From a virus (Duplodnaviria > Heunggongvirae > Uroviricota > Caudoviricetes), in the IMG/VR virus record IMGVR_UViG_2681813269_000011: 8,969 bases of DNA; one strand, written 5' to 3'. Under the pieces are notes generated by a model. That model saw only the letters and a list, made by a program, of their open reading frames with translations, searched no databases and was not told where the DNA came from. Shown here one piece after another: positions 1 to 8,969 of this stretch (its first letter is position 1; each line of letters opens with the position of its first letter). Position numbers and translations under genes: made by a program.

Positions 1-1630
1 CCTTCACGCCGTCGGTGACGGACTGGACCTCCACGCTGACCGGATTCCCCTGCCCGTCAACCAGGCTTATCAGCGTGGTGCCGGAGGATGGCAGCGTGAT
101 TTCACGGTCGAGCGTCAGCGTCCGGGTCTGGCTGTTTACCGCCAGCACGCGCCCGCCGATGCGGATACCGGCATAGTCATCATCGCAGATTTCAATGACA
201 TCGCCCGGTACATGACGAAGCCCTTCAGCACCCACGCTGAAATCCACGGTCTGCGTCTCCAGCAGTTCCGTTTTAATCAGCCACAGCCCGGCGCGGTGTG
301 CCTGCCCCCGGCTGGTACAGCCAAAGGCATCCATCTTCGTGACGTTACGACCGTAACGGGCAATGGCCTGCGTGTCCTCCACAAGCTCTGTTGCCGTCTC
401 CCAGCCGTTGTTCGGGTCAATCCAGTTCACCTCAACGGCATTATGGCGGTCTTTCAGGGCGCTGAAACTGTAGCGGAACGGCGCGCCATCATCCGGCATC
501 ACCACATTACTGCGGTTATAGGTCCACACCTTATCCGATGGTCGGTCCTGCACGAACGTCAGCGTCTGCCCGTTCCATACCGGCATACAGCGCATCGCCG
601 AGCAGAAATCACTGAGCACATCCCACGCCTTACGCTGTGTGGTCAGGTACGCATTACAGGTGATGCGCGGCTCCGTGCCGCCAAAACCGTCCGGCACCGA
701 CTGGTCACAGTACTGGCCGATGACATACAGCGCCCATTTATCCACATCTGCCGCACCAAGACGTTTCCCCATGCCGTAGCGCGGATGGGTCAGCATATCC
801 CACAGACACCAGGCCATGTTGTTGCTGTATGCCGGTTTAAACGTCCCGTCCCAGATACCGCTGTATTGCCGCGTCTGCGGGTTATAGTTCGACGGCACCT
901 GCAGAATGCGCCCGCGAAGATGATAATTACGGCTCACCTGCTGGCTGCCGAACTGCTCCGAATCCACCTGCACGCCGACCAGTGCCGTGTTCGGGTAGCA
1001 CTGTTTCACATCGATGATTTCGGTGTATGACGACCAGAGCGTTTTGTTCTGCAGCTGGTCTGTGGTGCTGTCCGGTGTCATCCTGCGCATCCGGATATTA
1101 AACGGGCGCGGCGGCAGGTTATCCACCACCACCGAGGCCAGATACTGCGACGTGGTTTTGCCCTTAATGGTGATGTCTTTTTCTGTCACCCAGCCACCGT
1201 TACGTTGTATCTGAACCAGCAGGCGGACTTCCGACGGATTCCGGTCACCCTTTGAGGTGGTTTCCACCAGTGCCTGCACACCGAAGGTAAAGCGCAGACG
1301 GTCGATGTTTGCAGACGTGATGGTCCGGGTGATCGGCGTGTCGTATTTCACTTCCGTACCCAGCACCGTCTCGGAGCCGGAGGATTCAAATCCCTCCGGC
1401 GGTGACTGCTCCTGCTCACCGGCCCGGAACACCACCGTGACGCCGGATATATTGGTATTCCCCTCACTGTCCAGCACCGGCGTACTGTTCAGCAGCACGC
1501 TTTTTAATCCATCCACCGGACCTTCAACCGGCCCTTCGCTGATGGCATCGATCACACTCAGCAGCTGCGTGGACTTCAGGTTGTCCTTCGCTTCGCGCGG
1601 GGTATGCCCCTTACTGCTGCCTTTACCCAT
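1..1630 (-). CDS. J: Tail-tip host-specificity protein J, copy A, N-terminal 543 codons; 3' end continues beyond the left window edge
   Basis: ATG at 1628-1630 (minus strand) with GGAG 8 nt upstream (ctcc at 1639-1642 on plus). Collinear with copy B at offset 2764. I hand-checked this frame from 1031 to position 2 and found no stop. Absent from the ORF track because no stop lies inside the window. Carries allele [11 protein letters not shown] like copy C, not ISTGG like copy B. Confidence 0.85.
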   Translation of the reverse strand, partial: MGKGSSKGHTPREAKDNLKSTQLLSVIDAISEGPVEGPVDGLKSVLLNSTPVLDSEGNTNISGVTVVFRAGEQEQSPPEGFESSGSETVLGTEVKYDTPITRTITSANIDRLRFTFGVQALVETTSKGDRNPSEVRLLVQIQRNGGWVTEKDITIKGKTTSQYLASVVVDNLPPRPFNIRMRRMTPDSTTDQLQNKTLWSSYTEIIDVKQCYPNTALVGVQVDSEQFGSQQVSRNYHLRGRILQVPSNYNPQTRQYSGIWDGTFKPAYSNNMAWCLWDMLTHPRYGMGKRLGAADVDKWALYVIGQYCDQSVPDGFGGTEPRITCNAYLTTQRKAWDVLSDFCSAMRCMPVWNGQTLTFVQDRPSDKVWTYNRSNVVMPDDGAPFRYSFSALKDRHNAVEVNWIDPNNGWETATELVEDTQAIARYGRNVTKMDAFGCTSRGQAHRAGLWLIKTELLETQTVDFSVGAEGLRHVPGDVIEICDDDYAGIRIGGRVLAVNSQTRTLTLDREITLPSSGTTLISLVDGQGNPVSVEVQSVTDGVK

Positions 1631-1640
1631 TCGTCATGCT

Positions 1641-1672
1641 CCATAAACGACAAAACCGCCCGGAGGCGGTTT
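1641..1672 (-). terminator. Terminator-like hairpin in I-J intergenic region (copy A): stem aaaccgcc/ggcggttt, 4-nt loop, then TTTTGTCGTTT on minus strand
   Basis: Stem 1653-1660 pairs with 1665-1672; the minus-strand transcript would read AAACCGCC-UCCG-GGCGGUUU-UGUCGUUUAUGG, running into the J Shine-Dalgarno. Short GC core (5 bp), so terminator function is uncertain. Confidence 0.3.
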
Positions 1673-1690
1673 CACATAAAACATTTTGCA

Positions 1691-1705
1691 TCAGCGACCA
1701 ATCAC
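1691..1705 (-). pseudogene. I: Orphan remnant of I: last 4 codons plus stop (VIGR*), cut off at breakpoint 1705/1706
   Basis: Minus strand reads gtg att ggt cgc tga, identical to the end of intact I (4455-4469); upstream sequence (1706 onward) is unrelated in this orientation. Confidence 0.6.
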
Positions 1706-1914
1706 TGGCACCGAAAGCCAGAACTCCCCGTACACAGACAACGGATAACGGCAAACAGAACACCTATTTCTCCTCACTGGATAACATGGTTGCCCAGGGC
1801 AATGTTCTGCCGGTTCTGTACGGTGAAATGCGCGTGGGGTCACGCGTGGTTTCTCAGGAGATCAGCACGGCAGACGAAGGGGACGGTGGTCAGGTTGTGG
1901 TGATTGGTCGCTGA
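1706..1914 (+). pseudogene. I: I 3' fragment (about the last 69 codons) in inverted, plus-strand orientation
   Basis: Plus-strand translation ends ...APKARTPRTQTTDNGKQNTYFSSLDNMVAQGNVLPVLYGEMRVGSRVVSQEISTADEGDGGQVVVIGR*, the C-terminus of the intact I at 4455-4663 on the opposite strand. Lacks the I start; ORF-track ORF 1636-1914 begins at an ATG in antisense intergenic DNA. Confidence 0.85.
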
Positions 1915-1932
1915 TGCAAAATGTTTTATGTG

Positions 1933-1964
1933 AAACCGCCTCCGGGCGGTTTTGTCGTTTATGG
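1933..1964 (+). terminator. Inverted copy of the I-J intergenic hairpin, now on the plus strand upstream of the plus-strand J fragment
   Basis: aaaccgcc (1933-1940), loop tccg, ggcggttt (1945-1952), then tgtcgtttatgg; mirror image of 1641-1672. Confidence 0.3.
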
Positions 1965-1974
1965 AGCATGACGA

Positions 1975-2574
1975 ATGGGTAAAGGCAGCAGTAAGGGGCA
2001 TACCCCGCGCGAAGCGAAGGACAACCTGAAGTCCACGCAGCTGCTGAGTGTGATCGATGCCATCAGCGAAGGGCCGGTTGAAGGTCCGGTGGATGGATTA
2101 AAAAGCGTGCTGCTGAACAGTACGCCGGTGCTGGACAGTGAGGGGAATACCAATATATCCGGCGTCACGGTGGTGTTCCGGGCCGGTGAGCAGGAGCAGT
2201 CACCGCCGGAGGGATTTGAATCCTCCGGCTCCGAGACGGTGCTGGGTACGGAAGTGAAATACGACACGCCGATCACCCGGACCATCACGTCTGCAAACAT
2301 CGACCGTCTGCGCTTTACCTTCGGTGTGCAGGCACTGGTGGAAACCACCTCAAAGGGTGACCGGAATCCGTCGGAAGTCCGCCTGCTGGTTCAGATACAA
2401 CGTAACGGTGGCTGGGTGACAGAAAAAGACATCACCATTAAGGGCAAAACCACGTCGCAGTATCTGGCCTCGGTGGTGGTGGATAACCTGCCGCCGCGAC
2501 CGTTCAATATCCGGATGCGCAGGATGACACCGGACAGCACCACAGACCAGCTGCAGAACAAAACGCTCTGGTCG
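1975..2574 (+). pseudogene. J: J 5' fragment, codons 1-200, on the plus strand (inverted duplicate); ORF runs on into antisense J sequence to 2940
   Basis: ATG at 1975 with GGAG at 1963-1966; translation MGKGSSKGHTPREAKDNLKSTQLL...[11 protein letters not shown] is identical to the copy B N-terminus for 200 residues, then becomes antisense-derived sequence ([10 protein letters not shown]...). Confidence 0.85.
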
Positions 2575-4394
2575 CCGTCAAAGTGCGCCCCGTTATCCAC
2601 GATGGCTTCTTTTCCCGGTACATGCTGCACGGCAGTGATGGCATACGTGCCGTCATCGTTCTCACGGATACTCACGCAGCGGAACAGGCGCTGGCGCAGC
2701 GTCGGCAGCTTCAGCCCCCACACGCTGTATTCTGCAACGCCGTCAGGAACCCGGCTCACTTTCACCTTCACGCCGTCGGTGACGGACTGGACCTCCACGC
2801 TGACCGGATTGCCACTTCCGTCAACCAGGCTTATCAGCGTGGTACCGGAGGATGGCAGCGTGATTTCACGGTCGAGCGTCAGCGTCCGGGTCTGGCTGTT
2901 CACCGCCAGTACGCGACCACCGGTGCTGATACCGGCATAATCATCATCGCAGATTTCAATGACATCACCCGGTACATGGCGAAGCCCTTCTGCGCCCACG
3001 CTGAAGTCCACGGTCTGCGTTTCCAGCAGTTCTGTTTTAATCAGCCACAGCCCGGCGCGGTGTGCCTGCCCCCGGCTGGTACAGCCAAAGGCATCCATCT
3101 TCGTGACATTACGACCGTAACGGGCAATGGCCTGCGTATCCTCCACAAGCTCTGTCGCCGTCTCCCAGCCGTTATCTGGGTCAATCCAGTTCACCTCAAC
3201 GGCATTATGGCGGTCCTTCAGGGCGCTGAAGCTGTAGCGGAATGGTGCGCCATCATCCGGCATCACCACATTACTGCGGTTATAGGTCCACACCTTATCC
3301 GATGGTCGGTCCTGCACGAACGTCAGCGTCTGCCCGTTCCATACCGGCATACAGCGCATCGCCGAGCAGAAATCACTGAGCACATCCCACGCCTTGCGCT
3401 GTGTGGTCAGCCAGGCATTACAGGTGATGCGCGGCTCCGTGCTGCCAAAGCCGTCCGGCACCGACTGGTCACAGTACTGGCCGATGACATACAGCGCCCA
3501 TTTATCCACATCTGCCGCACCAAGACGTTTCCCCATGCCGTAGCGCGGATGAGTGAGCATGTCCCACAGACACCAGGCCATGTTGTTGCTGTATGCCGGT
3601 TTTAACGTTCCGTCCCAGATACCGCTGTATTGCCGCGTCTGCGGGTTATAGTTCGACGGCACCTGCAGAATGCGCCCGCGAAGATGATAATTACGGCTCA
3701 CCTGCTGGCTGCCGAACTGCTCCGAATCCACCTGCACGCCGACCAGTGCCGTGTTCGGGTAGCACTGTTTCACATCGATGATTTCGGTGTATGACGACCA
3801 GAGCGTTTTGTTCTGCAGCTGGTCTGTGGTGCTGTCCGGTGTCATCCTGCGCATCCGGATATTGAACGGTCGCGGCGGCAGGTTATCCACCACCACCGAG
3901 GCCAGATACTGCGACGTGGTTTTGCCCTTAATGGTGATGTCTTTTTCTGTCACCCAGCCACCGTTACGTTGTATCTGAACCAGCAGGCGGACTTCCGACG
4001 GATTCCGGTCACCCTTTGAGGTGGTTTCCACCAGTGCCTGCACACCGAAGGTAAAGCGCAGACGGTCGATGTTTGCAGACGTGATGGTCCGGGTGATCGG
4101 CGTGTCGTATTTCACTTCCGTACCCAGCACCGTCTCGGAGCCGGAGGATTCAAATCCCTCCGGCGGTGACTGCTCCTGCTCACCGGCCCGGAACACCACC
4201 GTGACGCCGGATATATTGGTATTCCCCTCACTGTCCAGCACCGGCGTACTGTTCAGCAGCACGCTTTTTAATCCATCCACCGGACCTTCAACCGGCCCTT
4301 CGCTGATGGCATCGATCACACTCAGCAGCTGCGTGGACTTCAGGTTGTCCTTCGCTTCGCGCGGGGTATGCCCCTTACTGCTGCCTTTACCCAT
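2391..4394 (-). CDS. J: Tail-tip host-specificity protein J, copy B, disrupted: authentic J residues 1-610 followed by 57 antisense-derived residues
   Basis: 667-aa ORF starting MGKGSSKGHTPREAKDNLKSTQLLSVIDAISEGP, which is the lambda gpJ N-terminus as I recall it. Matches J through ...GAHFDGDQS, then reads VLFCSWSVV..., which equals antisense ORF 1014-1214. Breakpoint within 2564-2574. Native RBS GGAG 8 nt upstream (ctcc at 4403-4406). Confidence 0.9.
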   Translation of the reverse strand: MGKGSSKGHTPREAKDNLKSTQLLSVIDAISEGPVEGPVDGLKSVLLNSTPVLDSEGNTNISGVTVVFRAGEQEQSPPEGFESSGSETVLGTEVKYDTPITRTITSANIDRLRFTFGVQALVETTSKGDRNPSEVRLLVQIQRNGGWVTEKDITIKGKTTSQYLASVVVDNLPPRPFNIRMRRMTPDSTTDQLQNKTLWSSYTEIIDVKQCYPNTALVGVQVDSEQFGSQQVSRNYHLRGRILQVPSNYNPQTRQYSGIWDGTLKPAYSNNMAWCLWDMLTHPRYGMGKRLGAADVDKWALYVIGQYCDQSVPDGFGSTEPRITCNAWLTTQRKAWDVLSDFCSAMRCMPVWNGQTLTFVQDRPSDKVWTYNRSNVVMPDDGAPFRYSFSALKDRHNAVEVNWIDPDNGWETATELVEDTQAIARYGRNVTKMDAFGCTSRGQAHRAGLWLIKTELLETQTVDFSVGAEGLRHVPGDVIEICDDDYAGISTGGRVLAVNSQTRTLTLDREITLPSSGTTLISLVDGSGNPVSVEVQSVTDGVKVKVSRVPDGVAEYSVWGLKLPTLRQRLFRCVSIRENDDGTYAITAVQHVPGKEAIVDNGAHFDGDQSVLFCSWSVVLSGVILRIRILNGRGGRLSTTTEARYCDVVLPLMVMSFSVTQPPLRCI

Positions 4395-4404
4395 TCGTCA
4401 TGCT

Positions 4405-4436
4405 CCATAAACGACAAAACCGCCCGGAGGCGGTTT
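4405..4436 (-). terminator. Terminator-like hairpin in the native I-J intergenic region, followed by U-rich tract overlapping the J RBS
   Basis: Stem 4417-4424 pairs with 4429-4436, loop cgga; on the minus strand this is followed by TTTTGTCGTTTATGG. Same element as 1641-1672. Confidence 0.3.
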
Positions 4437-4454
4437 CACATAAAACATTTTGCA

Positions 4455-5126
4455 TCAGCGACCAATCACCACAACCTGACCACCGTCCCCTTCGTCTGCC
4501 GTGCTGATCTCCTGAGAAACCACGCGTGACCCCACGCGCATTTCACCGTACAGAACCGGCAGAACATTGCCCTGGGCAACCATGTTATCCAGTGAGGAGA
4601 AATAGGTGTTCTGTTTGCCGTTATCCGTTGTCTGTGTACGGGGAGTTCTGGCTTTCGGTGCCAGCATCTGCGCCACACCACCGAGCACCATACTGGCACC
4701 GAGAGAAAACAGGATGCCGGTCATACCACCGGTCCCAATGGCTGCCCCCCATGCTGCAAGGGTGGCTCCGGCGGTAAAGAATGATCCGGCAATGGCGGCA
4801 GCCCCCAGGACAATCTGGAATACGCCACCTGACTTGGCCCCGGCGACTCTGGGAACAATATGAATCACAGCGCCATCAGGCAGAGTCTCATGTAACTGCG
4901 CCGTTAACCCGGACGTGCTGACGTCCCGCCCGGCAATCCGTACCTGATACCAGCCGTCGCTCAGTTTCTGACGAAACGCCGGGAGCTGTGTGGCCAGTGC
5001 CCGGATGGCTTCAGCCCCCGTTTTCACACGAAGGTCGATGCGGCGACCAAATCGTTGTAAATCCCCGTAAAGGCAGATGCGCGCCATGCCCGGTGACGCC
5101 AGAGGGAGTGTGTGCGTCGCTGCCAT
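4455..5126 (-). CDS. I: Tail assembly protein I (gpI-like, 223 aa)
   Basis: Intact 223-aa ORF MAATHTLPLASPGMARICLYGDLQRFGRRIDLRV...GGQVVVIGR matching lambda gpI as recalled, with Gly/Ala-rich hydrophobic central segment. Overlaps the K 3' end by 103 nt and lies 60 nt upstream of J. Confidence 0.95.
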   Translation of the reverse strand: MAATHTLPLASPGMARICLYGDLQRFGRRIDLRVKTGAEAIRALATQLPAFRQKLSDGWYQVRIAGRDVSTSGLTAQLHETLPDGAVIHIVPRVAGAKSGGVFQIVLGAAAIAGSFFTAGATLAAWGAAIGTGGMTGILFSLGASMVLGGVAQMLAPKARTPRTQTTDNGKQNTYFSSLDNMVAQGNVLPVLYGEMRVGSRVVSQEISTADEGDGGQVVVIGR

Positions 5127-5767
5127 TTGTCGGTGTACCTCTCTCGTTTGCTCAGTTGTTCAGGAATATGGTGCAGCAGCTCGCCGTCGCCGCAGTAAAT
5201 TGCGGCGTGATTCGGCACTGATGAACCAAAACAGCACAGCAGCACATCGCCCGGCTGTGCCGCTGACAACGGCACCTGATACAGCCCCGTCGCCTCCAGA
5301 TTATCCAGATAGAGATTCTGGCCGTTACGCCACCAGTCATCCTCACGATAAAAGTCCGGCATCTCAATCCCCGCCAGATGATAAGCATCCCGGAACAGTG
5401 TGTAACAGTCCGTCACACCGTGCTCAAAGCGCCGCCCGGTGAGATGCGGCACACAGCGGAACTTATGAATCGTCCCCCGGCAGACCAGCCACCACGGCAA
5501 ATCACTCTGCACCTGCAGCCGCCGGTCGGCCTCACTCAGCCAGGGCAGACCACCGGGGTGGCTGTGGACCAGCGCCACAATCTCACCCTGCATTTCTGCC
5601 TGCAGCCAGTCTTCCGGCGACATACGGAAATACGCCTCCGGCTCACCGGAGATATTCACGCAGGGAAAATATCTTTCCCCCTCCGGCGTGCTTACCACGA
5701 AGCCGCACGACTCCGCTGGCGCACATCGCCGGGCGTGCGCCAGAATCGCTGATTCTGTCTGTGTCAT
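5024..5767 (-). CDS. K: Tail assembly protein K (gpK-like) with JAMM/MPN and NlpC/P60 signatures
   Basis: 247-aa ORF MTQTESAILAHARRCAPAESCGFVV... with an exact JAMM motif H68-x-H70-x7-S78-x2-D81 (HSHPGGLPWLSEAD) and NlpC/P60-type Cys121 (GVTDCYTLF) and His187 (NHAAIY). Start is 5 nt after the L stop. Confidence 0.93.
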   Translation of the reverse strand: MTQTESAILAHARRCAPAESCGFVVSTPEGERYFPCVNISGEPEAYFRMSPEDWLQAEMQGEIVALVHSHPGGLPWLSEADRRLQVQSDLPWWLVCRGTIHKFRCVPHLTGRRFEHGVTDCYTLFRDAYHLAGIEMPDFYREDDWWRNGQNLYLDNLEATGLYQVPLSAAQPGDVLLCCFGSSVPNHAAIYCGDGELLHHIPEQLSKRERYTDKWQRRTHSLWRHRAWRASAFTGIYNDLVAASTFV

Positions 5768-5772
5768 GGGAT

Positions 5773-6471
5773 TTACTGCGAAAGTTTGTTAATGGAAAGG
5801 AAGCCGCCAAAGTTGCCGACGTTATTGCGGAACTTACAACCGCTCAGGCATTTGCTGCATTTATCCTTCGTGATATCGGACGTTGGCTGGTCATATTCAT
5901 CCGCGACAGCCGGACCGCTATAACCGCACTCGTCACCGCGATAGGTCCAGGTGCAGGTATTGGCCAGCATGATACGTCCCGGAAAAACAGCGCCATCCGT
6001 TTCCGTCGGCGTGGACAGTACAAAGGAGGCACTCACCGCGCTCAGTTCGCTGCACTGCTCAATGCGCCAGCGGCTGATCACCTCCTGCTCCGGATCGGCG
6101 TAACTGTTTCCGTTGACGAAGTTCACCGCATCCAGAAAACGGGCGTAAACCTTACGCCGGACCACCGTTCCGCCGACCAGACTCTGCAGATCTTCCGCCA
6201 TCCCGGTGACCATACCGTACAGGTTAGAAACCGTCAGCGTGGGGCGCGTACTGGTGCCTTTGCCATTCAGTTCAAAACCGCTCCCCTGAATGGGATACGG
6301 CTGATACTGTCGCCCCTGCCAGGTGACCGGCTCACCTTTTTCGTTCTGCTCATTACAGAAAAAATAACGTTCTCCACCGACCTCTGTCAGGTCGATTTCC
6401 CAGAGCACCACGCTGGCCGACTGCTCCGCACGGGTGCATTCATTCAGTGTTTCCTGCCGGATATCCTGCAT
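5773..6471 (-). CDS. L: Tail tip protein L (gpL-like, 232 aa)
   Basis: 232-aa ORF MQDIRQETLNECTRAEQSASVVLWEIDLTEVGGERYFFCNEQNEKGEP... ending in the Cys-rich motif DKCSKCLSGCKF, matching lambda gpL as recalled. ATG overlaps the upstream stop by 1 nt (TGATG); AGGTGG lies 7 nt upstream. Confidence 0.95.
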   Translation of the reverse strand: MQDIRQETLNECTRAEQSASVVLWEIDLTEVGGERYFFCNEQNEKGEPVTWQGRQYQPYPIQGSGFELNGKGTSTRPTLTVSNLYGMVTGMAEDLQSLVGGTVVRRKVYARFLDAVNFVNGNSYADPEQEVISRWRIEQCSELSAVSASFVLSTPTETDGAVFPGRIMLANTCTWTYRGDECGYSGPAVADEYDQPTSDITKDKCSKCLSGCKFRNNVGNFGGFLSINKLSQ

Positions 6472-6516
6472 CAGTTCACCACCTGTTCAAACTCTGCGCT
6501 GAACTCAACACGCAGC
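6471..6516 (-). pseudogene. M: M 3' remnant, last ~15 codons only ([14 protein letters not shown])
   Basis: Minus-strand frame ending at TGA (6471-6473) reads ...[14 protein letters not shown], which I recall as the C-terminus of lambda gpM (109 aa). Homology stops abruptly at about 6516/6517, where J-derived sequence begins in another frame. Boundary is +/-3 nt because it is inferred from the protein. Confidence 0.6.
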
Positions 6517-8969
6517 AATGGTGGGGGCCGTCAGGCGTTTCAGGAACACGTCGTTCATGAATATCTGATCGCCCTGACCAACAAACATCGGTTTTGTGTT
6601 GCCATTCGCAGGATTAACCATCGCAATCCTGTCCGCCGCCAGCAGCACCTGACTCTGCATGCCGTCAGGGGTGTTCTCAATACCGGCACCAATACCCGCG
6701 ATATAAAGGCGTCCGTCCTGCATCTGCTGCAGCTTCACAGCCCACATGCTGTTCAGGTTATTATTTGTATCAACCTGAACCTTCTGTATCTGCTGAATTG
6801 CCGCACTCTGGTCTTCCAGTTTCTTATTGACGGTCTGCGTGATTTCATTGCTGACATCCGTAATGGACGTCCTGATTTCAGCCAGGTCAGGCGCAAGCTG
6901 ACCGTTATCAATCTGCGTCCACAGCTCCTGAGCCAGATGGGTTTTCCCTATCTCGCCTTTGAAAAAATCCAGATAGCCGGATGCATCATCACTCGGCTGA
7001 CCAACAGCCTCCACGAATGCCGATTTGCCAACGGTGTTCACACTGCGAACGTAAAAATAATAATCATGGCCCGGTTTGATATTGATACTGGCGGCTATCC
7101 AGTACAGCGCCGTGCCAAGATAGCGGGCTGTGGTTTCAACCTGCCTGATATCGGTAATCCGCTTTTCCGAGAACCAGAACTCAAACTGTACCGTCGGGTC
7201 ATAAACGGCAAGATGCGGCGTGGCGGTTATCTGAAAATAGCCCGGCGTCAGCTCAATCCGCGACGGCACTGCAGGTGCGGCAATCCGGAACGATACCGAT
7301 GCCGGATCGCCCTGCTGCCCCCACGCATTTACCGCCCGGACTGTCAGCCTGTAGTTCCCCAGCGCCAGCTGCCTGAAGCGGTATGCGGTTTCCGCCGTCC
7401 GGGCCGTGCTGACCAGCCGCTCACTGCCGTCATCCGCTGCCACGGTCAGGCGAAGCAGGAAACTCACGCCCTTCACCACCTTCGGCGTGTCCCAGCGGGC
7501 CAGTACCTGATACTCCCCGCTGTCTGCGGTGACTTCGGCAGTCAGGTGCTGTACCGCTGGCGGCGTGACACCATTCACCGTGCCGCTCTGGTCGCCGTCA
7601 AAGTGCGCCCCGTTATCCACGATGGCTTCTTTTCCCGGTACATGCTGCACGGCAGTGATGGCATACGTGCCGTCATCGTTCTCACGGATACTCACGCAGC
7701 GGAACAGGCGCTGGCGCAACGTCGGCAACTTCAGCCCCCACACGCTGTATTCTGCAACGCCGTCAGGAACACGGCTCACTTTTACCTTCACGCCGTCGGT
7801 GACGGACTGGACCTCCACGCTGACCGGATTGCCACTTCCGTCAACCAGGCTTATCAGCGTGGTACCGGAGGATGGCAGCGTGATTTCACGGTCGAGCGTC
7901 AGCGTCCGGGTCTGGCTGTTTACCGCCAGCACGCGCCCGCCGATGCGGATACCGGCATAGTCATCATCGCAGATTTCAATGACATCGCCCGGTACATGGC
8001 GAAGCCCTTCAGCACCCACGCTGAAGTCCACGGTCTGCGTTTCCAGCAGTTCTGTTTTAATCAGCCACAGCCCGGCGCGGTGTGCCTGCCCCCGGCTGGT
8101 ACAGCCAAAGGCATCCATCTTCGTGACGTTACGACCGTAACGGGCAATGGCCTGCGTGTCCTCCACAAGCTCTGTTGCCGTCTCCCAGCCGTTGTTCGGG
8201 TCAATCCAGTTCACCTCAACGGCATTATGGCGGTCCTTCAGGGCGCTGAAGCTGTAGCGGAATGGTGCGCCATCATCCGGCATCACCACATTACTGCGGT
8301 TATAGGTCCACACCTTATCCGACGGTCGGTCCTGCACGAACGTCAGCGTCTGCCCGTTCCATACCGGCATACAGCGCATCGCCGAGCAGAAATCACTGAG
8401 CACATCCCACGCCTTACGCTGTGTGGTCAGGTACGCATTACAGGTGATGCGCGGCTCCGTGCCGCCAAATCCGTCCGTCACTGACTGGTCGCAGTACTGG
8501 CCGATGACATACAGCGCCCATTTGTCCACATCTGCCGCACCAAGACGTTTCCCCATGCCGTAGCGCGGATGGGTCAGCATATCCCACAGACACCAGGCCA
8601 TGTTGTTGCTGTATGCCGGTTTAAACGTCCCGTCCCAGATACCGCTGTATTGCCGCGTCTGCGGGTTATAGTTCGACGGCACCTGCAGAATGCGCCCGCG
8701 AAGATGATAATTGCGACTCACCTGCTGGTTACCGAACTGCTCTGAATCCACCTGCACGCCGACCAGCGCCGTGTTCGGGTAGCACTGTTTCACATCGATG
8801 ATTTCGGTGTATGACGACCAGAGCGTTTTGTTCTGCAGCTGGTCTGTGGTGCTGTCCGGTGTCATCCTGCGCATCCGGATATTGAACGGTCGCGGCGGCA
8901 GGTTACCCACCACCACCGAGGCCAGATACTGCGAAGTGGTTTTGCCCTTAATGGTGATGTCTTTTTCCG
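6505..8969 (-). CDS. J: Tail-tip host-specificity protein J, copy C; 5' end beyond the right window edge, 3' end cut at the junction with the M remnant; about codons 150-969
   Basis: Open minus-strand frame from the window edge to the stop at 6505-6507; collinear with copy B at offset 5020 and intact through the region where B is broken (...[27 protein letters not shown]...). Ends ...[15 protein letters not shown] then AAC*, where lambda gpJ as recalled continues TSGGNPPAF. Confidence 0.9.

Follow-up and report, generated by a model that had tools for sequence, protein, structure and literature searches.

A Shigella sonnei contig in which overlapping segments of one lambdoid tail-tip block, carrying three divergent J alleles, are probably falsely joined

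Introduction

In lambda-like phages J acts as the central fibre and determines host specificity, and the proteins I, K and L serve in assembly of the tip. Each of the ten natural loci considered here contains a single M-L-K-I-J-lom block, and together with two annotated references they display one H-M-L-K-I-J-lom block, in which one complete J (1132-1165 aa) is followed by lom and stf. Several J paralogues are present in many E. coli and Shigella genomes, with a median of 3 and up to 14 places per genome.

Repetition of a segment in alternating orientation has been described as inverted triplication (DUP-TRP/INV-DUP) or tandem inversion duplication, in which the copies stand in direct-inverted-direct order and for which ODIRA and template-switch models have been proposed (PMC4689423). 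Repeated sequence can also be falsely joined in draft assemblies. The Sanger pipeline paper covers at least 299 S. sonnei assemblies with the neighbouring WGS prefixes CXFG to CXOG; in it SSPACE and GapFiller are described as greedy tools that may create false joins, properly paired reads are taken out ahead of the improvement step, the target fragment size is 300-500 bases, and 4-10 misassemblies are given per benchmark genome (PMC5320598). The prefix of the contig described below, CXNR01, is not among the supplement entries of that paper covered here. In GapFiller, extension proceeds one base at a time with 30-mers, and a gap is closed at an overlap of at least 10 nt (PMC3446322).

The window analysed in this study (8,969 bp) is the entire contig CXNR01000286.1 of the S. 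sonnei draft assembly GCA_001256515.1.

Results

All bases of the window map to one 5,020-bp interval (positions 6001-11021 of the reference locus L001), a canonical lambdoid M-L-K-I-J block, and are laid out as four overlapping segments of this single tail-tip block, one of them inverted (Table 1). The segments are joined at three non-homologous junctions, comprising two fold-backs and one head-to-tail jump that gives a period of 5,020 bp, and mapping of the whole window found no mobile element, IS or foreign or inserted DNA at the joins. The coding capacity is fully assigned to L, K, I, J and antisense ORFs. The whole contig is repeat material, and each of its ends falls within the repeat. 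The two ends overlap over about 1183 nt with 97.6% identity and, as the initial annotation had recognized, are not identical. Internal repeats are of two kinds, an inverted one of 870 nt that is perfect and one of 675 nt that occurs three times with no more than 2 mismatches; short reads alone would probably be unable to order them.

Table 1. Segments, junctions and genes of contig CXNR01000286.1 (reference coordinates are those of L001)
Feature	Position	Strand or orientation	Description
Segment 1	1-1705	direct	reference 7269 to 8973
Segment 2	1705-2574	inverted	reference 9168 to 8299
Segment 3	2564-6517	direct	reference 7068 to 11021
Segment 4	6517-8969	direct	from reference 6001
J1, fold-back	1705-1706		reference 8973 (direct) joined to 9168 (inverted); 1-nt overlap
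J2, fold-back	2564-2574		J codon 200 (sense on +) to about codon 606 (antisense on +)
J3, head-to-tail jump	6517-6518		M 3' end (reference 11021) to J codon 966 (reference 6001)
J copy A	1-1630	-	codons 1-543; open frame exits contig start; L001 7269-8898 at about 97%
I-J spacer and gene I end	1631-1705	-	stop and last 4 codons of I at 1691-1705
Inverted partial copy	1706-2574	+	last 69 codons of I and stop, spacer, J codons 1-200
J copy B	2575-4394	-	codons 1 to about 606
Gene I	4455-5126	-	tail-tip assembly protein, 223 aa from ATG at 5126; PF06805 Lambda_tail_I
Gene K	5024-5767	-	247 aa, JAB/NlpC-P60 tail-tip protein; PF14464 Prok-JAB, PF00877 NLPC_P60
Gene L	5773-6471	-	232 aa, minor tail protein L; PF05100 Phage_tail_L
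Gene M 3' end	6472-6517	-	last ~46 nt; L001 10976-11021, within M CDS 10975-11304
J copy C	6518-8969	-	codons 149-966; contig end removes N-terminus

Every segment is 96-98% identical in nucleotide sequence to the lambdoid tail-tip block of Escherichia phage 21 (OL657228) and E. coli prophages, and nucleotide matches comprise 271 phage records and 4,697 E. coli records. Segment 3 is collinear with L001 and phage 21 (96.6-98%) and keeps the M-L-K-I-J order, and the contig encodes the gpL, gpK, gpI and gpJ/TipJ Pfam domains of a lambda-like tail tip. The L-K-I-J order within segment 3 and these domains are shared with the lambdoid block, as is the I-J terminator hairpin, a terminator-like structure at 1653-1672 in the I-J spacer whose phage 21 equivalent is annotated as a terminator. 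Gene I has been called as 190 aa from position 5027, and natural prophages commonly encode exactly this 190-aa protein; the exact K and L proteins each occur on at least 1000 contigs. The contig departs from the natural loci, with their one complete J followed by lom and stf: it contains three incomplete J copies together with an inverted I'-J' piece, lacks lom and has non-homologous joins at three places.

The initial annotation proposed three overlapping, non-identical copies of J, and these are present on the minus strand with a common region of 1185 nt (J nt 446-1630). The limits assigned to B and C (2391-4394 and 6505-8969, minus strand) are those of the ORFs and not of J: 2391-2574 is antisense to the 5' end of the inverted J, and 6505-6517 is the 3' end of gene M. 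Past J2 the copy B ORF reads through 61 further codons (2391-2574) derived from that antisense sequence and then stops, and the copy C ORF terminates 4 codons beyond J3 with a stop at 6505. Frames are thereby cut at about codon 606 in B and at codon 966 in C, leaving an orphan I' fragment besides. The called J gene of copy A contains Pfam FNIII-A_GpJ and Phage-tail_3. None of A, B or C amounts to a full-length J (about 1132-1165 aa with the receptor-binding domains at the C-terminus), as the Ig_J, Phage_Tail_Tip and Ig_GpJ_C domains of natural J are located beyond the points at which they stop, and the receptor-binding C-terminus is missing from all copies, including the most C-terminally extended, C. 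As assembled, no copy would be expected to yield a working protein.

The real anomalies of the contig are features that the initial annotation overlooked, namely the inverted fourth partial copy and the three junctions. In the inverted copy the I fragment with its stop occupies 1706-1914, and J codons 1-200 occupy 1975-2574. Its identity to the reverse complement of 3795-4664 is 100% over 870 nt, and that to the reverse complement of 1031-1705 is 99.7%. The allele is that of B, with the B-type base at both J nt 525 and J nt 531. In the triplicated core (reference 8299-8973) copy A differs by only 2 nt; outside the core, in the duplicated flank, segments 1 and 3 differ at 38 of 1030 nt (3.7%). 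The inverted repeat spans the I-J junction and truncates J. At J2 the overlap is an 11-nt microhomology (CGCTCTGGTCG), corresponding to an 11-bp inverted repeat that occurs naturally within J and whose arms are separated by 1.2 kb. At J1 inverted microhomology is lacking (1 nt only), and the overlap at J3 is also 1 nt. The joins lie within multi-copy sequence and interrupt reading frames, as would be expected of misassembly.

Over the shared 1185 nt the pairwise identities are 96.4% for A/B (43 differences), 97.4% for A/C (31) and 96.5% for B/C (41), and 100-nt windows span 89-100%, so that an earlier by-eye range of 92-99% was about right. The residue differences quoted with that estimate are likewise found in the copies: GIRIGG (A, C) versus GISTGG (B), VDGQGNP (A) versus VDGSGNP (B, C), D at residue 170 in A and B versus G in C, and the F/L (codon 278), Y/W (328), P/T (313) and S/N (229) differences. 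The mosaic pattern reported for the copies also holds, with 56 of the 57 variable sites biallelic and the odd copy rotating blockwise (C,A,C,B,C,B,C,A,B,A,B,A,B,A). About 80% of the differing codons are synonymous, about 75% of the differences are transitions, and the variation is situated in the N-terminal and middle parts of J. Judged by sequence, the differences between A, B and C look like natural polymorphism, and this substitution pattern at a divergence of 2.6-3.6% suggests old paralogues, not one recent duplication. Natural J alleles used as controls are equally mosaic, so blockwise mosaicism alone cannot diagnose chimerism, and scrambling tests against these natural controls did not demonstrate chimerism inside alleles A, B or C. 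No J copy of the roughly 15,000 in complete E. coli genomes matches A, B or C at 99% or better; one of three natural control alleles is equally orphan.

The junctions were searched for elsewhere at the protein and nucleotide levels. The 92-aa ORF spanning J1 (1636-1914, plus strand) is confined to this contig among 153 billion gene positions, and the chimeric 667-aa ORF spanning J2 is found on CXNR01000286.1 alone in a search of the same size; no protein spanning both halves of J2 is present among 5.8 billion clusters. The J1 37-mer has no exact match in viral or GTDB-representative contigs, the J2 36-mer none in viral or JGI metagenome contigs, and the J3 37-mer none in viral, GTDB-representative or JGI metagenome contigs, while a 240-nt query across J3 reaches at least 80% coverage in 0 of 5,426 complete E. 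coli genomes. All three junctions thus appear unique to CXNR01000286.1 within the collections searched for each. The searched collection includes thousands of assemblies of the clonal species S. sonnei.

Discussion

The contig is probably best explained as real segments of paralogous prophages between which a greedy pipeline of short-read assembly, scaffolding and gap filling made false joins. The strain would carry several lambda-like prophages or remnants whose M-L-K-I-J blocks are 96-100% identical, and blocks of this similarity are inseparable by short reads yet too divergent for clean collapse. An assembler followed by greedy scaffolding and gap-filling would traverse such a tangle of paralogues repeatedly and join non-adjacent pieces, yielding in order allele A (segment 1), a back-to-front piece of B, B with I, K, L and the M end, and then C. 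The artefact would accordingly reside in the three junctions and not in the alleles, and the genes themselves would be ordinary lambdoid tail-tip genes. The initial annotation had suggested that assembly chimerism brought paralogous lambda-like J alleles together, and this suggestion is supported as the probable reading by the natural character of the polymorphisms, the single-block organization of natural loci and the unique, frame-cutting junctions.

From the accession neighbourhood, species and date we infer that the Sanger Velvet, SSPACE and GapFiller pipeline made the assembly, and the junctions presumably lack read support. The contig resembles greedy false joins in consisting purely of multi-copy prophage sequence, and the 11-nt overlap at J2 fits the GapFiller rule of at least 10 nt. 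J1 and J3 differ from joins of this type in overlapping by just 1 nt, so that the overlap-merge rule is insufficient for them and either chimeric junction-spanning reads or a real junction is needed.

A real junction is what the next explanation supplies, that of a strain-specific rearrangement in which an inverted triplication of I-J (DUP-TRP/INV-DUP type) is combined with a deletion fusion of J (codon 966) to M between tandem prophages. Template switching during replication, or fold-back where short inverted repeats occur, would have produced the triplication. We consider it unlikely, despite several features in its favour. The direct-inverted-direct order, the triplicated core and the duplicated flanks reproduce the classic architecture (PMC4689423); the central copy, inverted between direct copies, is identical to one flank copy (B) and differs from A by 2 nt in the core; J2 falls at a short, natural inverted repeat within J; and joins as blunt as J1 and J3 typify illegitimate recombination. 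The prophages of S. sonnei are known to be degraded. A single recent event, however, predicts identical flanks, and the 3.7% difference between segments 1 and 3 departs from the near identity expected of one template, with C constituting a third allele. The contig also differs from inverted triplications in the 1.2-kb separation of the J2 arms, in the absence of inverted microhomology at J1 and in the entry of the third allele via a separate head-to-tail junction. Within 9 kb, rearrangement would call for no fewer than three paralogues and three illegitimate events, and its junction ORFs and peptides occur on one contig only, although this clonal species is represented by thousands of assemblies in the searched collection. 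In addition the contig is wholly repeat with both ends in repeat, and an inverted repeat of 870 nt would probably have been beyond the resolution of the source short reads. A layout that is real because replication template switching among three paralogous lambdoid prophages produced a multi-template rearrangement, combining an inverted triplication with a tandem-prophage fusion, is, in our estimate, rather improbable. If true, it would be a modestly interesting template-switch rearrangement between prophages that changes no open question, a bacterial analogue of DUP-TRP/INV-DUP recording the scrambling of prophage 'graveyards'.

A mixed DNA source, in which a mixed culture, contaminating E. 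coli or induced phage DNA gave rise to a cross-sample chimera, is more doubtful again. It would account for the orphan status of A, B and C, for the presence of yet another allele in another partial J of S. sonnei (P0010), and it has a precedent in the contaminant-labelled J fragments that occur in draft assemblies (P0071). The number of J places per E. coli or Shigella genome nevertheless means that one genome is enough, a natural control allele is equally orphan, and the window holds lambdoid tail genes only, with nothing to gauge contamination by.

Programmed tail-fibre diversification by a diversity-generating retroelement or an invertase cassette switch, which the several non-identical J segments and the 870-bp inverted repeat might bring to mind, is contradicted and has next to no likelihood, since the window has no reverse transcriptase or invertase ORF, the variation is largely synonymous, transition-rich and not adenine-targeted, it lies away from the receptor-binding C-terminus, and the inverted repeat runs across the I-J junction into a truncated J.

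With false joining of real paralogues as the preferred reading, the value of the case is mainly one of data hygiene, as proteins deposited from the contig are join products. These join-derived proteins are the 667-aa CTD34257.1 ('host specificity protein [Shigella sonnei]'), a 786-aa J fragment, the 92-aa ORF and a 272-aa antisense ORF, and CTD34257.1 and the other join products should therefore be taken neither for natural variants of J nor for evidence that J is truncated. Blockwise mosaicism is, as the case further illustrates, the normal state of J.

Organization of the contig

All 8,969 bases trace, by self-comparison and by mapping to an annotated E. coli prophage (L001) and to phage 21 (L002, OL657228), to one 5,020-bp lambdoid tail-tip interval (L001 6001-11021), which contains L, K and I flanked by the 3' end of M and by J codons 1-966; the window genes lie on the minus strand. 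Four segments of this interval account for every position, and the window contains no IS, att site, foreign DNA or N (table below). The genes themselves are of the ordinary lambdoid tail-tip kind. On translation, J copy A comprises codons 1-543. Copy B runs from codon 1 to ~606, after which its frame reads 61 antisense codons of segment 2; copy C spans codons 149-966, and its frame goes on through 4 codons of terminal M sequence. Segment 2 is a fourth partial copy and carries, inverted, the last 69 codons of I, the I-J spacer and J codons 1-200; its identity to the reverse complement is 100% for 3795-4664 and 99.7% for 1031-1705. Translation and alignment thus bear out the three J copies and the peptide differences described in the initial annotation, while the limits it gave for B (2391) and C (6505) are those of ORFs with junction-made, non-J tails rather than of J itself.

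Coordinates of segments, junctions and other features
Feature	Window position	Orientation or strand	L001 position	Description
Segment 1	1-1705	direct	7269-8973	
Segment 2	1705-2574	inverted	9168-8299	
Segment 3	2564-6517	direct	7068-11021	
Segment 4	6517-8969	direct	6001-8453	
Junction J1	1705/1706			I end (stop + last 4 codons, minus) to I codon ~155, other strand; 1-nt overlap
Junction J2	2564-2574			J codon 200 (plus) to ~J codon 606 (minus); 11-nt microhomology CGCTCTGGTCG
Junction J3	6517/6518			last 46 nt of M to J codon 966, same strand; 1-nt overlap
Spacer hairpin	1653-1672			
Spacer hairpin	1933-1952	inverted		
Spacer hairpin	4417-4436			
Antisense open frame, 272 aa	212-1030	+		opposite J/L; called as gene in deposited record
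Antisense open frame, 340 aa	2583-3605	+		opposite J/L
Antisense open frame, 907 aa	5761-8484	+		opposite J/L; crosses J3

A G+C-rich hairpin in the I-J spacer (AAACCGCC-CGGA-GGCGGTTT) is present three times, once per spacer copy, and the equivalent site in phage 21 is annotated as a terminator (L002 8918-8942). The three antisense open frames have no Pfam matches and look like by-products of sense-strand codon bias. Within copy C, G+C falls to ~0.50 at 6750-7250 (~codons 720-890) against 0.57-0.64 around it, and 6518-7152 is a 635-nt exact match to an allele of our natural panel; together these features suggest a module of different origin within J.

Variation among the J copies

Of the 1185 nt common to all three copies, 57 vary, 56 of these being biallelic; pairwise identities are 96.4% (A/B), 97.4% (A/C) and 96.5% (B/C), ranging from 89 to 100% in 100-nt windows. 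The odd copy out changes from block to block (successively C, A, C, B, C, B, C, A, B, A, B, A, B, A), so that the mosaic pattern noted earlier is real. Synonymous changes make up 76-86% of the differing codons and transitions ~75% of the substitutions, as for natural polymorphisms under purifying selection; the differences are neither sequencing errors nor the product of targeted mutagenesis.

Several signs of chimerism within the alleles were considered and set aside. Each segment was covered greedily with exact matches drawn from a panel of 85 natural alleles. The window segments took 17, 34 and 35 pieces, whereas leave-one-out covers of the natural alleles took 13, 23 and 18 at the median, with maxima of 36, 61 and 45; since natural alleles also require many pieces, the count does not discriminate. 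Identity to the nearest neighbour was likewise dropped because natural panel alleles also stand at ~98% from theirs. Unscrambling the copies into majority and minority haplotypes brought neither closer to natural alleles than A, B or C, and natural alleles written as a path through the three copies still left 8-11 mismatches at best. In 5,426 complete E. coli genomes, with ~15,000 J copies, no copy matched A, B or C at 99% or above (best 98.1%, 97.5% and 97.9%, respectively). Two natural control alleles had 190 and 64 records at that level, but a third had none (best 98.6%) and is as orphan as the window copies, so that orphan status is no proof of chimeric alleles. Chimerism inside A, B and C was therefore not demonstrated by piece cover, haplotype unscrambling or the orphan test. 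Because natural alleles behave alike in these tests, the mosaicism corresponds to the normal population structure of J and is compatible with true paralogous alleles.

The two contig ends (1-1183 and 7785-8967) overlap by ~1183 nt at 97.6% identity, so that the contig traces a nearly closed 7,784-bp loop, the behaviour expected of a walk round a cycle in a tangled assembly graph. The J3 join creates a 5,020-bp period; a circular or rolling-circle unit of that length was rejected, as the copies are not identical.

The junctions in other sequence collections

In a set of 153 billion gene positions, the 92-aa ORF spanning J1 and the 667-aa ORF spanning J2 were confined to this contig. Exact look-up of the 667-aa chimera returned one record, CXNR01000286.1 (the whole window; assembly GCA_001256515.1), where it bears the accession CTD34257.1 and the title 'host specificity protein [Shigella sonnei]'. 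With a 99-aa query across J2, no protein among 5.8 billion clusters contained both halves, the top matches covering at most 51% as either the J or the antisense part. Exact junction-spanning patterns of 36-37 nt were absent from IMG/VR, GTDB species representatives and JGI metagenomes for J3, from IMG/VR and GTDB representatives for J1, and from IMG/VR and JGI metagenomes for J2. A 240-nt query across J3 reached at least 80% coverage in 0 of the 5,426 complete E. coli genomes, thousands of which match either half alone. Natural loci retrieved by the I protein included none with the window's arrangement, and all ten with an identical I protein had the canonical single H-M-L-K-I-J-lom-stf layout.

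Origin of the arrangement

The packing of three J alleles into 9 kb most likely does not exist in the genome. In the reading best supported by the data, which we consider probable, paralogous stretches of real prophage DNA were linked by mistake when short reads were assembled, scaffolded and gap-filled. The contig consists of repeat material only, with both ends inside the repeat; its exact repeats of 675-870 nt are beyond ordering by short reads; and its junctions interrupt reading frames and occur in no other record searched. A, B and C are old paralogues, not fresh duplicates. The initial annotation, which had proposed paralogous lambda-like J alleles with assembly chimerism, gains support from the repeat-only composition and the unique, frame-breaking joins.

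The accession neighbourhood, species and date suggest that GCA_001256515.1 was made by the Sanger high-throughput pipeline, whose description covers 299 S. sonnei assemblies, averaging 405 contigs each (PMC5320598). The supplement rows covered by the analysis have WGS prefixes CWW*, CXFG and following, and CXOG, and CXNR is not among these rows; no literature was found on CXNR01, GCA_001256515 or ERP000568. In that pipeline Velvet is followed by SSPACE and then by 120 GapFiller iterations at decreasing evidence thresholds, properly paired reads are taken out ahead of the 'improvement' step, and benchmark misassemblies number 4-10 per genome; SSPACE and GapFiller are acknowledged there to be greedy and capable of false joins (PMC5320598). 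GapFiller lengthens each gap edge by single bases, chosen by majority voting on 30-mers, and treats a gap as closed once the two sides share an overlap of 10 nt or more (PMC3446322). The J2 microhomology, a natural inverted repeat inside J, lies just above this threshold, whereas J1 and J3 are essentially blunt and are not explained by the overlap rule. These two joins would need a few chimeric library fragments, whose share would rise once proper pairs are removed ahead of gap filling; failing that, both joins would have to be real.

A real strain-specific rearrangement, the main alternative, is unlikely. The order of segments 1-3 (direct, inverted, direct) is exactly that of inverted triplications (PMC4689423), and segment 2 shows no difference from segment 3; however, 38 of 1030 nt distinguish segment 1 from segment 3 where a fresh duplicate would be expected, the third allele (C) requires one more illegitimate join, and in the collections searched nothing similar was seen in another assembly of the clonal Shigella sonnei. 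Mixed-template DNA is more doubtful still. A programmed diversification system is hardly credible, because the window contains neither a reverse transcriptase nor an invertase, the variation is synonymous-rich and the receptor-binding end of J is absent; a DGR or invertase reading was rejected from the gene content and substitution pattern.

The J2 peptide search also returned many tiny proteins from other draft assemblies (P0047, P0049, P0057, P0071, P0100, P0102 and P0104) that combine a J fragment, or a stretch translated from the J antisense strand, with unrelated domains (among them holin, small terminase and resolvase); one carries the label Streptococcus uberis. Chimeric or contaminant mini-contigs with J seem frequent in public drafts. 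Among the matches listed in the IMG/VR scan none was at 100% to P0010 (WP_162772903.1), a 600-aa partial J from Shigella sonnei of a different allele (GISIGG, VDGEGNP). It ends at J codon 599, ~7 codons before the cut in copy B, and there may be a tendency for Shigella sonnei contigs or genes to break close to J codon 600.
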